DNA of 5,076 nt. Source: a virus (taxonomy: Duplodnaviria > Heunggongvirae > Uroviricota > Caudoviricetes). The translations under genes were made by a program, and so were the position numbers. The number at the start of each line of letters is the position of its first letter. Position 1 is the first letter of the stretch. The stretch lies in the IMG/VR virus record IMGVR_UViG_2671180524_000022; one strand, given 5' to 3'. This document shows positions 2,486-5,076 of the stretch, piece after piece. Under the pieces are notes generated by a model. That model did not search any database, was not told where the DNA came from, and saw only the letters and a list, made by a program, of their open reading frames with translations.

Positions 2486-2880
2486 TTAGTGCATCACCAC
2501 AGCATTCCCTGCCGGGCCGCCGCGATTCATCTGGTCATACAAAACAACCGCTGACGCAACAAAATCATCGACATCCTTCACCAGCCGATCCCTCCGTTCG
2601 ACGATCTCACGGTAATATTCAGAACTGTGGCTGCGCATACGGGCCACCAGCAAAGGCGGCATCGCCTTTTCGATCGCCGGTAACAGAGCCTGCATTTTTT
2701 CAACAGCATCAGGGGTGTCTTTATCCNNNNNNNNNNNNNNNNNNNNNNNNNNNNNNNNNNNNNNNNNNNNNNNNNNAGCTCGAAATACGCTTTGGTAATT
2801 TTCGCAGCCGGTACTTTTTCGCCGTCCGGATGCGCCCAGACATTCATCGCCATGCGGATGTGTTCATGCTTGATTTTCAT
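2486..2880 (-). CDS. YdaT-like protein (cII-position gene of Rac-type prophages), interrupted by the assembly gap; true length unknown
   Basis: N-terminal piece MKIKHEHIRMAMNVWAHPDGEKVPAAKITKAYFE from ATG 2880-2878, which overlaps the cro-like stop as ATGA. C-terminal piece ...DKDTPDAVEKMQALLPAIEKAMPPLLVARMRSHSSEYYREIVERRDRLVKDVDDFVASAVVLYDQMNRGGPAGNAVVMH ends with TAA at 2488-2486. The two pieces are in different frames across the 50 N, as expected for a gap of arbitrary length. The MKIKHEHI start matches my recollection of E. coli YdaT. Confidence 0.55.
2727..2776. other. Assembly gap (run of 50 N)
   Basis: 50 consecutive n characters, seen directly. Confidence 0.97.
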
Positions 2881-3179
2881 GAATCAACTCCATCAGATAA
2901 GCATGCACTACAATCACCTTCAGCATGAACTACATGTGTTTGCCCCAAACGAATGCCGCTCGCATACTCAGGCCAAATAAGCTCCCAATCATGGGGTCGT
3001 AGCTCCGCCCTACTTACTTGGCCTTCCGTCGCAGATTCGATCATAAGGGCGCGGGTTGGAGATATAGCTGTTCGTCCAGACGCCATTTGCGATAAGTAAG
3101 ATGGCGATACACCAAGTCTGGCCGCGAATTTCTTAGCATCACCAACCCTTAATGATTTAATAAACTCTTTTAATGTCAT
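2877..3179 (-). CDS. Cro-like HTH regulator, YdaS family
   Basis: 100-aa ORF. Strong SD GAGGAAGG immediately upstream of ATG 3179-3177. HTH segment AARLGVSPSYLSQMASGRTAISPTRALMIESATEGQVSRAELRP. Divergent from the repressor gene across the operator region. Stop TGA overlaps the next gene's ATG. Confidence 0.8.
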   Translation of the reverse strand: MTLKEFIKSLRVGDAKKFAARLGVSPSYLSQMASGRTAISPTRALMIESATEGQVSRAELRPHDWELIWPEYASGIRLGQTHVVHAEGDCSACLSDGVDS

Positions 3180-3185
3180 ACCTTC

Positions 3186-3272
3186 CTCGGTTTAGTGTTT
3201 TTTTGCGAGTTTAGTGTTTAATAAACCATTAAGTCAAGTATTTGCTTGTTTAGTGATTACTAAAGATAATTA
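3186..3272. promoter_or_regulatory. Divergent promoter/operator region (OR-like) between the repressor and cro-like genes
   Basis: Direct repeats GTTTAGTGTTT (3190-3200, 3209-3219) and GTTTAGTGATT (3248-3258). Palindromes GTTTAATAAAC (3216-3226) and TTTAGTGATTACTAAA (3249-3264). Plus-strand promoter candidate: -35 TTGCTT 3242-3247, 17-bp spacer, -10 GATAAT 3265-3270. Minus-strand promoter candidate: -35 TTGACT (rc of 3232-3237), 18-bp spacer, -10 TAAACT (rc of 3208-3213). Confidence 0.5.
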
Positions 3273-3276
3273 CCAC

Positions 3277-3648
3277 ATGCAAAAAAAAGAAATTCGCCGT
3301 TTACGTCTCAAGGAGTGGTTTAAAGATAAAACTCTGCCACCCAAAGAGAAGAGCTACCTATCTCAACTAATGAGTGGGAGAGCCTCGTTTGGAGAAAAGG
3401 CTGCCAGAAGAATAGAGCAAACATACGGGATGCCGGAAGGGTATCTGGATGCGGAATACGCAGAACAACCGGGGGGTTCTCCACCACATGCAGGGTTAAC
3501 GTCTAATCAACTGGAATTATTGCAGATTTTTTCAGCCTTCCCTGAGGATGAGCAACGCCAGATAATCAGCGAGTTAAAGCAGAAAAAAGAATCAATGGAA
3601 GATCTCATAGCGAGATGGATTGCGGCGCAAAAATGCCGCCGCGCCTGA
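3277..3648 (+). CDS. paaR: HTH immunity repressor at the cI position; likely also regulator of the downstream toxin-antitoxin pair (PaaR-like)
   Basis: The track ORF starts at 3214, but the ATG at 3277 (123 aa) lies just downstream of the -10 element and clear of the operator repeats. HTH segment KEKSYLSQLMSGRASFGEKAARRIEQTYGMPEGYLD. C-terminal LTSNQLELLQIFSAFPEDEQRQIISELK resembles the DicA C-terminus as I recall it. Stop TGA at 3646-3648. Gene symbol from recalled operon architecture only. Confidence 0.7.
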   Translation: MQKKEIRRLRLKEWFKDKTLPPKEKSYLSQLMSGRASFGEKAARRIEQTYGMPEGYLDAEYAEQPGGSPPHAGLTSNQLELLQIFSAFPEDEQRQIISELKQKKESMEDLIARWIAAQKCRRA

Positions 3649-3668
3649 GTTATAAAACCGGAGGAAAC

Positions 3669-3860
3669 ATGAATAGAGCCCTTTCACCAATGGTTTCTGA
3701 ATTTGAAACCATTGAACAAGAAAACAGTTACAACGAATGGCTGCGTGCGAAAGTAGCAACGAGCCTTGCAGATCCGCGCCCAGCAATTCCCCATGACGAA
3801 GTTGAGCGCAGAATGGCAGAACGCTTTGCTAAGATGCGCAAGGAACGGAGCAAGCAGTAA
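3669..3860 (+). CDS. paaA: Small antitoxin (63 aa), PaaA-like partner of a ParE toxin
   Basis: ATG 3669 with GGAGG at 3660-3664. Product MNRALSPMVSEFETIEQENSYNEWLRAKVATSLADPRPAIPHDEVERRMAERFAKMRKERSKQ is small and charged, consistent with a partly disordered antitoxin. Its stop TAA at 3858-3860 is 1 nt before the toxin ATG. Length matches my recollection of PaaA2 (63 aa). Confidence 0.75.
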   Translation: MNRALSPMVSEFETIEQENSYNEWLRAKVATSLADPRPAIPHDEVERRMAERFAKMRKERSKQ

Positions 3861-3861
3861 A

Positions 3862-4140
3862 ATGTTACCCGTGTTATGGCTTGAAAGCGCAGATACCGAC
3901 CTAGATGATATAACTAGTTATATTGCTCGTTTCGACATAGATGCGGCTGAACGCTTATGGCAGCGATTAAGGGGTTGTGTGCTGCCGTTATCCGAACATC
4001 CGTATTTATACCCACCAAGCGACAGAGTACCTGGCTTGCGTGAGATTGTAGCCCACCCTAACTATATAATTCTATACCGCGTAACAACATCAAGCGTTGA
4101 AGTAGTAAACGTGATCCACGCAAGACGCCAGTTTCCCTAA
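3862..4140 (+). CDS. parE: ParE/RelE-superfamily toxin (92 aa)
   Basis: ATG at 3862 in the same frame as track ORF 3766..4140. Product MLPVLWLESADTDLDDITSYIARFDIDAAERLWQRLRGCVLPLSEHPYLYPPSDRVPGLREIVAHPNYIILYRVTTSSVEVVNVIHARRQFP shows the typical ParE pattern (N-terminal helices, C-terminal ...ILYRV...VEVVNVIHARR). Translationally coupled to the upstream antitoxin. Confidence 0.85.
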   Translation: MLPVLWLESADTDLDDITSYIARFDIDAAERLWQRLRGCVLPLSEHPYLYPPSDRVPGLREIVAHPNYIILYRVTTSSVEVVNVIHARRQFP

Positions 4141-4157
4141 CTTTCACTACCAATAGA

Positions 4158-4205
4158 AACATAACAACCGCAACGACTTTATCAAAAGCGTTGTGTTTGT
4201 TATGT
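4158..4205 (+). terminator. Imperfect inverted repeat downstream of the toxin gene; possible terminator or protein-binding site
   Basis: Left arm aacataacaaccgcaacg (4158-4175) and right arm cgttgtgtttgttatgt (4189-4205) pair at about 15 of 17 positions around a 13-nt loop. No clean U-tract follows, so this is not a canonical intrinsic terminator. Confidence 0.25.
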
Positions 4206-4210
4206 CCCGC

Positions 4211-4255
4211 GGTTTAGTTTTTACTTGACTTAAGTTTAATGTTTATTAAACTAAA
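4211..4255 (+). promoter_or_regulatory. Second operator/promoter-like module (OL/pL-like), rightward
   Basis: GTTTAGTTTTT (4212-4222) and palindrome GTTTATTAAAC (4241-4251) resemble the OR motifs. -35 TTGACT 4225-4230, 16-bp spacer, -10 TAAACT 4247-4252. The TTGACTTAA...GTTTATTAAAC...TAAACT arrangement is shared with the minus-strand cro promoter candidate. Confidence 0.35.
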
Positions 4256-4570
4256 AATACCAACCCACCCCGCCCCACAGAACGCAGGGAAATACTTCGA
4301 GTTACCCGGCAGTGGTCAGGGGTTAAGTAGCCAGCCCGAGGCGTATGAACATGACGGCAGGGTTCAACTTTAATAACTATGCAGCAGTTTTTTGTTCCGC
4401 TACCCCGGCGTTAAGGGGAAACAGAGGGTTTCTCAGTGGGCGAAGTCAAACATCAGAATGGAAGGCATCCCGGGATCGGCAAAGAAGCAGCAATGGCGCT
4501 TTATATTGACATCAGCGCCATTGCAGGACAGGTAAGAGTTATCAGAGCGGTAACTAAGCGGTATGCGCCT

Positions 4571-4771
4571 TTACTTCAGAAAGTCTCTGGTGAGTGCACC
4601 GAAGATATTGTCAACGATTTCGTCATCGAACTGCGAGGACTCATCTTCAGTTACAAGGTGACCACAATTTTTGCAGATGGCTCCCGCGAAACTGTCAGAG
4701 CCCTGCGGCTTAAAGGATGTGTCAAAGACTTCGCCACCACATTCTGGGCAAGAAAACTTGATTGTATTCAT
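4571..4771 (-). CDS. Small zinc-ribbon protein (CxxC...CxxC), function unknown
   Basis: Minus-strand ATG at 4771-4769 (the track starts at TTG 4777) with SD GAGAGGAA 7 nt upstream. Product MNTIKFSCPECGGEVFDTSFKPQGSDSFAGAICKNCGHLVTEDESSQFDDEIVDNIFGALTRDFLK has two CxxCG pairs and an acidic tail. Few rare codons, unlike the overlapping plus-strand ORF. Confidence 0.6.
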   Translation of the reverse strand: MNTIKFSCPECGGEVFDTSFKPQGSDSFAGAICKNCGHLVTEDESSQFDDEIVDNIFGALTRDFLK

Positions 4772-4864
4772 AACCAATTTCCTCTCGAGTAACAGACCCC
4801 TCAGAGGATACCACCTCGCCTGACGTGGTTAAAAAGCAGGCAACGCTAACCACAAGGAGCCGAC

Positions 4865-5076
4865 ATGCAGAAACGAGACCCCGTCATCATCGCGCCAGAC
4901 TATACCGATGATGAACTTTATGAGTGGATGCACCAGAAAATTAAGGCGGTGCAGGACCTGAAATGGGCCAATGAAGCCAGGGCTAAGCAGGCTGAAAATC
5001 TGTCCGCTCTGGAGCAGGATATCACCAATCTGGAAAAAGCAGCGGCATTAAGCATTGCCAGAATGATTACATACCC
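4865..5076 (+). CDS. Hypothetical protein, 5' portion only (runs off the window end)
   Basis: AAGGAG at 4854-4859, 5 nt before ATG 4865. Open to the window end: MQKRDPVIIAPDYTDDELYEWMHQKIKAVQDLKWANEARAKQAENLSALEQDITNLEKAAALSIARMITY.... Absent from the ORF track because there is no stop in the window. Coiled-coil-like composition from about residue 25. Confidence 0.6.
   Translation, partial: MQKRDPVIIAPDYTDDELYEWMHQKIKAVQDLKWANEARAKQAENLSALEQDITNLEKAAALSIARMITY

Follow-up and report, generated by a model that had tools for sequence, protein, structure and literature searches.

The PL933P promoter-operator of Escherichia coli O157:H7 prophage CP-933P and the conserved leader downstream of it

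RESULTS

A block downstream of parE2 repeats the operator and promoter sequences of the ydaS control region

We analyzed a 5,076-nucleotide (nt) stretch of DNA from IMG/VR virus record IMGVR_UViG_2671180524_000022, referred to here as the window. It is the immunity region of the Escherichia coli O157:H7 cryptic lambdoid prophage CP-933P and carries the paaR2-paaA2-parE2/ydaS-ydaT locus. Many O157:H7 chromosomes match positions 3100-5076 from end to end at 99.7% identity, and blastn of positions 4141-4570 gave 100% identity to O157:H7 strain TR01 and 99.8% identity to one EDL933 assembly. Our subject is the block at 4211-4255, which starts 71 bp after the parE2 stop codon (4140). A first-pass annotation, made from the letters alone, had put it about 70 bp past the toxin stop and had read it as a second copy of a repressor-controlled promoter that fires rightward, as pL does in lambda. 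This block is PL933P with its left operator (OL), already published by Jurenas et al. in 2021 (mBio 12:e02947-21, PMC8630535), and the finding itself is known. The features of the block and of its partner at the right operator (OR) are as follows.

4212-4229: OL operator copy A, GTTTAGTTTTTACTTGAC, overlapping the -35 hexamer (4/18 mismatches; member of direct-repeat family D1)
4225-4230, plus strand: -35 hexamer TTGACT of PL (promoter scan), inside TACTTGACTTAA, the -35 region of the ydaS promoter inverted
4234-4251: OL operator copy B, GTTTAATGTTTATTAAAC, filling the spacer and overlapping the -10 hexamer (4/18 mismatches to the published palindrome)
4247-4252, plus strand: -10 hexamer TAAACT of PL (promoter scan)
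3208-3237, minus strand: PR933P, the promoter TTGACT-18-TAAACT of ydaS (cro-like), partner copy of the module (scan, inverted match, published footprints and reporter)
3190-3265: OR operator array, with repeats from 3190, 3209, and 3248 (best 18-mers 3209-3226 and 3248-3265)

All of the motifs in the annotation lie where it had placed them (GTTTAGTTTTT at 4212-4222, TTGACTTAA at 4225-4233, GTTTATTAAAC at 4241-4251, and TAAACT at 4247-4252). The minus-strand copy that it described at the cro promoter was also recovered in the same order, with TTGACTTAA at 3237-3229, GTTTATTAAAC at 3226-3216, and TAAACT at 3213-3208. A promoter scan returned TTGACT-16-TAAACT at 4225-4252 on the plus strand and TTGACT-18-TAAACT at 3237-3208 on the minus strand, so that the spacer is 16 nt at PL and 18 nt at the ydaS promoter. 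The transcription start of PL is predicted from the sequence to lie near 4259.

The block might owe its resemblance to chance, or be a vestigial AT-rich repeat, and play no part in regulation. It is indeed AT-rich, and this region has many promoter-like matches (6 found versus 3.4 expected), so that such a match alone is not significant. However, TACTTGACTTAA is a 12-nt exact inverted match between 3229-3240 on the minus strand and 4222-4233 on the plus strand. Shuffled sequences are expected to hold 0.01 of these, and two matches occurred in none of 200 shuffles. The operators also cluster far beyond shuffles. GTTTAGTGNTTA, with up to two mismatches, occurs five times in 5 kb (1.0 expected), at starts 3190, 3209, 3248, 4212, and 4234. 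All five copies are on the plus strand; the ydaS-paaR2 interval holds three and the 4211-4255 block two, and a repeat search of the window recovered the same direct-repeat family (D1). Chance is further contradicted by the published promoter activity and repression (PMC8630535) and by the same design in five other immunity types (see below). We consider it extremely improbable.

We also scored every 18-mer of the window against the published half-site GTTTAGTAA. Four or fewer mismatches in 18 were found at only four sites, two in OR (3209-3226 and 3248-3265) and two in OL (4212-4229 and 4234-4251). The 11-nt palindrome picked out in the first-pass annotation is the right part of the 18-bp operator GTTTAATGTTTATTAAAC at 4234-4251, which is identical at 16 of 18 positions to GTTTAGTGTTTAATAAAC at 3209-3226, in the same plus orientation. 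The operators are direct copies but the -35 block is inverted, and each promoter takes its -10 hexamer (TAAACT) from the opposite end of the palindrome. The likeness of the block to the OR/ydaS promoter region is far beyond chance.

Two further observations concern these sequences. An extra operator-like half-site, GTTTATTAA, lies on the minus strand at 3157-3165, inside the first ydaS codons, and is held in a 21-nt, 86% inverted repeat (3148-3168 and 3213-3233); the half-site may be a further PaaR2/YdaS site. Separately, a minus-strand promoter-like match at 4185-4158 lies inside a hairpin and has no support, and we treated it as chance.

PL933P was shown to be a repressible promoter in a reporter assay

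Jurenas et al. sought the CP-933P analogues of lambda PL and OL (PMC8630535). They described PL933P as having the same -35 and -10 elements as PR933P, with operators OL1 to OL3, and their Fig. 2 legend sets it in "a downstream RAE2 region." The 4211-4255 block lies just beyond parE2 and has the same hexamers as PR933P, TTGACT and TAAACT. Furthermore, the primers in their Table S3 map exactly to the window.

4141-4258, plus strand: fragment cloned as PL933P-gfp (primer F-PL-SacI at 4141-4161 on the plus strand, R-PL-BamHI at 4237-4258 on the minus strand)

From these primer positions, the reporter fragment holds the whole of 4211-4255 in the plus orientation, with gfp to its right. Activity of this green fluorescent protein (GFP) fusion was approximately 100-fold lower with PaaR2 or YdaS, and leaky or low PaaR2 was already enough to repress it (PMC8630535). 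This bears out the earlier claim that the promoter is pL-like, fires rightward, and is under repressor control. DNase I footprints of PaaR2 and YdaS extend over the ydaS-paaR2 intergenic (OR) region, PaaR2 octamerizes in solution, and the authors raised the analogy with looping (PMC8630535).

Those octamers, and the looping analogy, also suit a different emphasis. The block might be mainly a distal operator, where a PaaR2 octamer is anchored and loops OL to OR for tighter PR repression and PRM autoregulation, as with lambda OL, its promoter activity being of little consequence. Three features fit this: OL and OR are separated by only about 1.0 kb, an insertion sequence (IS) and pseudogenes have damaged the downstream operon, and the first gene downstream is convergent. 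However, the fragment was an active promoter in the reporter assay (PMC8630535), and the promoter and leader are kept in the intact inducible phages Evi and Tritos. We judge it rather unlikely that the block is mainly a distal operator; moreover, the two roles are not exclusive, and looping supplements a promoter function more than it competes with it. It is very likely that 4211-4255 is the early-left promoter-operator of CP-933P, PL933P with OL.

PL933P faces a Qin-type dicB operon with a local gene replacement

We assigned genes from the RefSeq annotation of the matching O157:H7 locus (L001) together with the open reading frame (ORF) list of the window.

2578-2880, minus strand: ydaT-family gene, containing a run of N
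2877-3179, minus strand: ydaS/cro-like gene (Pfam YdaS_toxin match)
3277-3648, plus strand: paaR2, CI-like repressor acting on OR and OL (primer F-1-PaaR2 matches at 3277 by eye)
3669-3860, plus strand: paaA2, member of the antitoxin-toxin pair in the repressor operon (Pfam PaaA2, 1e-19; RefSeq annotation of L001)
3862-4140, plus strand: parE2, the other member of that pair (Pfam ParE_toxin, 1.9e-16; RefSeq annotation of L001)
4159-4205, plus strand: long hairpin with 22-nt arms between the parE2 stop and OL
4571-4771, minus strand: ECs_2282-family zinc-ribbon gene, convergent with PL (NCBIfam NF047912, 57.3 bits versus a cutoff of 37; RefSeq annotation)
4865-5076, plus strand: ydfC, truncated at the end of the window; first annotated gene of the PL operon on this strand (L001 annotation)

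The PaaR2 N-terminal domain matches PDB 7NKV/8C3K (E = 5e-41). The hairpin at 4159-4205 has a minimum free energy (MFE) of -24.8 kcal/mol (z = -4.86), and none of 200 shuffles was as stable. It has no adjacent U-run; the 5' arm is rich in CA and the 3' arm in GU. It is probably the 3' end, terminator, or stabilizer of the paaR2-paaA2-parE2 mRNA.

Beyond the window, the plus strand of L001 continues with ydfC, the DicF RNA (L001 8326-8377, 76.7 bits in Rfam), dicB, ydfD, an exonuclease gene split by IS1203, xis, and an int pseudogene. By gene order, the genes downstream of PL are a Qin-type dicB operon, which is what the early-left operon of Qin/Rac-type prophages ordinarily looks like. The genes ydfA and ydfB come after the leader in Qin and Tritos, and E. 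coli prophage L003 also has ydfA (annotated DUF1391). CP-933P and phage Evi are without ydfA and ydfB and have a segment with the convergent ECs_2282 gene instead (window 4422-4864). The first-pass annotation had found it odd that the first confident gene downstream is on the opposite strand. That gene scores above its NCBIfam cutoff, and the comparison of gene order indicates that the oddity is real and results from the local replacement of genes within an otherwise normal operon. A literature search on the ECs228x locus tags gave nothing useful. A plus-strand ORF of 118 amino acids (4436-4792) overlaps the ECs_2282 gene in antisense. The annotation of phage Evi includes this ORF, for which NCBIfam and Pfam had no family match.

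Several points weigh against a working early-left promoter-operator at this position. The 5' rapid amplification of cDNA ends (RACE) primers of the 2021 paper target only paaR2 and ydaS, its footprints lie in the OR region, and the regulators in its repression assay were supplied from pBAD24. Three OL operators are described there, and only two sites passed when we looked for the third by 18-mer score. Downstream, the first confident gene is convergent, and a perfect 11-bp inverted repeat lies just downstream of it at 4490-4524 (GCAATGGCGCT/AGCGCCATTGC, 13-nt loop). This repeat may end the ECs_2282 transcript and could impede or stop PL transcripts. Finally, the prophage is defective (IS1203 interrupts the exonuclease gene, and int is a pseudogene), and full expression of the PL operon may be vestigial.

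We made three side observations elsewhere in the window. A run of 50 N at 2727-2776 breaks the ydaT-family gene; it stands for masked or unknown bases and has no biological meaning. The published YdaT operator, TTGATTN6AATCAA, has an exact copy at 2870-2887, the junction of the ydaS stop and ydaT start. RefSeq calls a frameshift in the DUF1627-family gene upstream of the DnaC-like gene (L001 2826-3595; window ~600-620), and a run of seven T residues lies at ~611-617 of the window, where the two reading frames of that gene join.

The same promoter-operator design occurs in prophages with other repressors

We compared CP-933P with five prophages or phages that have differing repressors and operators: K-12 Rac (L002), E. 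coli prophage L003, vB_EcoS-666R9 (L006), Tritos (L007), and pPE4, a phage deposited as Actinobacillus. In all five, the repressor operon is followed by an outward promoter that is flanked by inverted repeats and lies directly upstream of the same conserved leader. In all five, too, the repeats at the outward promoter match those in the prophage's own OR (TTAGGCnnnGCCTA in Rac, TACCCAnnGGTA in L003, CTCACnnnnGTGAG in pPE4, and AGTACnT in 666R9 and Tritos). The longest block common to OR and OL in Rac takes in the -35 element too (ATTGTCAATAGGCT). By eye, the gap between the repressor operon and the promoter holds a G+C-rich hairpin and T-run in L005, L006, and L007, a weaker one in Rac, and none in L003.

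Displacement of RacR in Rac raised ydaG, ydaF, kilR, ydaE, and racC 40- to 70-fold (PMC11014345), which is the expected outcome if such a promoter drives the left operon. The OL/PL design is thus general over six immunity types of Rac/Qin-like prophages.

A conserved leader begins at the predicted PL start

The sequence that follows the promoter in each of these prophages can be divided as follows.

4257-4421, plus strand: full conserved PL leader (~165 nt), common to prophages with different immunity regions
4254-4365, plus strand: 5' leader module, consisting of hairpin P0-P1-P2 with a conserved apical loop and then the core (covariance-model match, 107.8 bits)

In the blastn search with 4141-4570, positions 4257-4421 were found at 85 to 98% identity in 3,758 of 5,426 complete E. 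coli genomes; K-12 is one of them, with the match in Rac between racR and ydaG. The leader is also in several phages, and the promoter and leader arrangement is present in intact inducible ones, such as Evi and Tritos. Immunity-specific sequence ends at about 4256. In the alignment, the common sequence starts about 4 to 7 nt past each prophage's own -10 hexamer (4254-4257 in the window), which puts it on the predicted start or a few bases away. The boundary between immunity-specific and shared DNA falls at the predicted transcription start.

The element is also at L002 2497-2608, L032 6638-6749 (minus strand), and L106 4364-4478 and 7048-7162. We surveyed genera by scanning one genome per species for a pattern and then running local blastn, which located the 5' part in Serratia, Pectobacterium, Symbiopectobacterium, Winslowiella, Superficieibacter, and many Arsenophonus copies. 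A 36-nt core (4324-4359, TTAAGTAGCCAGCCCGAGGCGTATGAACATGACGGC) is near-invariant across these genera. In Serratia, the element follows a PaaR2/DicA-like repressor gene. One Arsenophonus contig (L106) has two immunity regions, each with a repressor, the element, a boxA (CGCTCTTTAA), a boxB-like hairpin (CGCTGAAAAAGCG), and an ORF; the stretches after the element are 4480-5007 and 7165-7706, and the ORF of the first region is arginine-rich and N-like. Symbiopectobacterium L100 and L066 also have boxA downstream of the module. The module thus coexists with N/nut antitermination, and the element is not nutL itself. Within 4259-4865 of the window, we saw no boxA (CGCTCTTTA), boxB hairpin, or arginine-rich N gene when the sequence and alignment were inspected by eye. 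The K-12 Qin dicBp leader (L129 2640-2770) has only the 3' part (GTTCCGCTACCCCAGCGTTAAGGGGAAA before ydfA), without the 5' 110-nt module. Since Qin keeps the 3' part alone, the 5' module is a separable cassette.

The first-pass annotation had suggested that PL might drive a noncoding or antisense transcript or read through to the gene at 4865. Its first alternative holds for the conserved and apparently noncoding first 110 to 165 nt; beyond them, synteny continues the operon into ydfC-dicF-dicB. A noncoding RNA could still be the main PL product, either the leader alone or an antisense silencer of the convergent ECs_2282 gene, in place of an early-left mRNA. The structured leader starts at the start site, about 600 nt follow with no convincing same-strand ORF (the 4436-4792 ORF being without a family match), and the transcript would cross 4571-4771 in antisense. 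However, in the relatives no terminator separates the leader from what comes after it, either ydaG/ydfA or nutL with an N-like gene, and ydfC-dicF-dicB come next on the same strand in CP-933P. Furthermore, ECs_2282 is absent from those relatives, so antisense control of it cannot explain why the leader is conserved. We regard a noncoding main product as improbable, and an early-left mRNA with a conserved leader is the reading that we carry forward.

The leader has a covarying hairpin and a near-invariant core

Upstream of the core, the leader sequences differ but the long hairpin is kept. In a MAFFT alignment of 21 sequences, all 14 of the P1 and P2 pairs had changes on both sides. The covariation score was 0.543, compared with 0.09 to 0.21 for slid partners, and it was reached by none of 500 shuffles. 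A model-fitted alignment of 43 distinct sequences, which leans towards the model, gave double changes in 17 of 17 pairs and a score of 0.385 versus at most 0.075 for slid partners. Single-sequence MFE folds produced the same P0-P1-P2 hairpin in eight of eight lineages, with cap AAU/GUU and loop ACYNCGA. RNAalifold, run on these alignments, did not recover P1/P2 and returned only an invariant GCC/GGC stem; the leader hairpin rests on the covariation counts for the named structure and on the single-sequence folds. We also looked for unusual stability, but the whole leader had a z-score of +1.66 and z-scores were ordinary in seven of eight lineages. A pseudoknot between the apical loop (CYNCG) and CGAGG of the core is possible in some lineages, but the variable position changes without compensation, and we rejected it.

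The core contains GAGG, 9 nt, and an invariant AUG (4351 in the window), which opens a mini-ORF. This mini-ORF varies from about 4 to more than 25 amino acids across lineages and is unrelated in sequence, which points to a role at the level of the RNA or of translation initiation and not to a conserved peptide. A protein-coding leader was rejected, because 6-nt and 1-nt indels between E. coli lineages break every frame and the mini-ORF is not conserved. The leader is very probably a functional structured element.

We then compared the leader with known RNAs. Rfam 15 had no match in 4250-4430 at E ≤ 1, and within 4140-4570 it gave only a meaningless match of a microRNA model to the 4159-4205 hairpin. 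At the Rfam gathering threshold, L001 contained only DicF and the ALIL pseudoknot. Literature text searches for the leader sequence returned nothing relevant and no assigned function, although an earlier mention elsewhere is possible. The Rho terminator trac of Rac (PMC4150792) is inside racR and is read from PRM, and it is not the leader. We also considered membership of the HK022 put family. The put consensus comprises two stem-loops in about 70 nt with conserved GAACGGCGCG...AAACCAUGCGUCGG..., and the leader does not fit it. Neither HK022 nor HK639 gave a match to the covariance model of the leader, even at the annotated putL-like RNA (L131 9188-9313), and blastn found no match to either phage. 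HK022 putL and the HK639 putL-like RNA resemble each other and not the leader element. No second copy of the element was found near or after PR; there is one copy per locus in the window and in L001 to L007.

DISCUSSION

The published reporter data and the comparisons made here are consistent with the following scheme. A sigma-70 promoter (TTGACT at 4225-4230, TAAACT at 4247-4252) would fire rightward from about 4259. The operator copies overlap the -35 element (4212-4229) and the spacer and -10 element (4234-4251), so RNA polymerase would be shut out by bound repressor. PaaR2, the CI analogue, is encoded 0.6 to 1 kb upstream in the same direction and would keep PL off in the lysogen-like state; YdaS, the Cro analogue, could repress it too. 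Once derepressed, PL would transcribe the conserved structured leader and then ydfC-dicF-dicB-ydfD-exonuclease-xis-int. The parts of this scheme that we infer are the exact start site, binding of repressor directly to the two 18-mers, looping between OL and OR through PaaR2 octamers, and transcription that reads on as far as dicB and past it.

For the promoter-operator itself, this adds little beyond confirmation of the 2021 reporter work. PL933P can be read as the promoter of one O157:H7 copy of dicF-dicB, and the PaaR2/YdaS bistable switch would thereby be linked to a cell division inhibitor and a small RNA. The part that could matter is the leader, which lies upstream of toxic genes (kilR and dicB) and is present in most E. 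coli genomes. We tentatively propose, as an idea that may well prove wrong, that the PL transcript opens with an undescribed class of cis-acting phage RNA. This would be an element of about 110 nt, with a covarying hairpin, an invariant apical loop, and a 36-nt core, placed at +1 of the early-left promoter from Escherichia to Arsenophonus, with any repressor type and with or without N/nutL. It may modify early-left transcription or translation; put-like antitermination or anti-Rho action, ribosome loading, and transcript stabilization are all possible modes.

The arrangement in CP-933P resembles lambda OL/PL in several ways. An outward promoter lies at the far end of the repressor operon, and at least two copies of the OR motif overlap it (with sigma-70 hexamers). 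CI-type and Cro-type proteins both repress it, and the repressor can octamerize. By synteny, the PL position heads an early-left operon of division inhibitor, recombination, and xis/int genes. There are differences too. The operator sequence is unrelated and has a mixed direct and inverted repeat character, and PaaR2 is short and without a LexA-like cleavage domain. The CP-933P repressor operon has a ParE-type toxin-antitoxin pair where lambda has rexAB. The OL-OR distance is about 1 kb in CP-933P and about 2.4 kb in lambda.

The block is the same DNA as the published PL933P and differs from it in nothing of substance, except that three operators were counted there and two are placed here. Compared with Qin dicBp (DicA/DicC) and the RacR-controlled left promoter of Rac, the order is the same: repressor, promoter, leader, small genes, dicF-dicB or kilR, and exonuclease. 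Operators and repressors are not the same, and the leader is shared in full by Rac but only in its 3' part by Qin.

A parallel to the leader is PL-putL of HK022, in which a structured RNA also begins within 3 nt of the PL start. The put RNAs act in cis as antiterminators, suppressing terminators through contact with the zinc-binding domain of the RNA polymerase beta' subunit. The two RNAs are unlike, however, one being a long hairpin with an invariant core and the other two hairpins of about 35 nt. The PL/OL regions of 666R9 (L006 2440-2500) and Tritos (L007 2440-2495) are very similar to that of HK022 (L128 4310-4400, minus strand), with AAAATGTACT...AAGTACAT. In both phages, the leader fills the exact slot that putL occupies in HK022, with the mosaic joint at +1.

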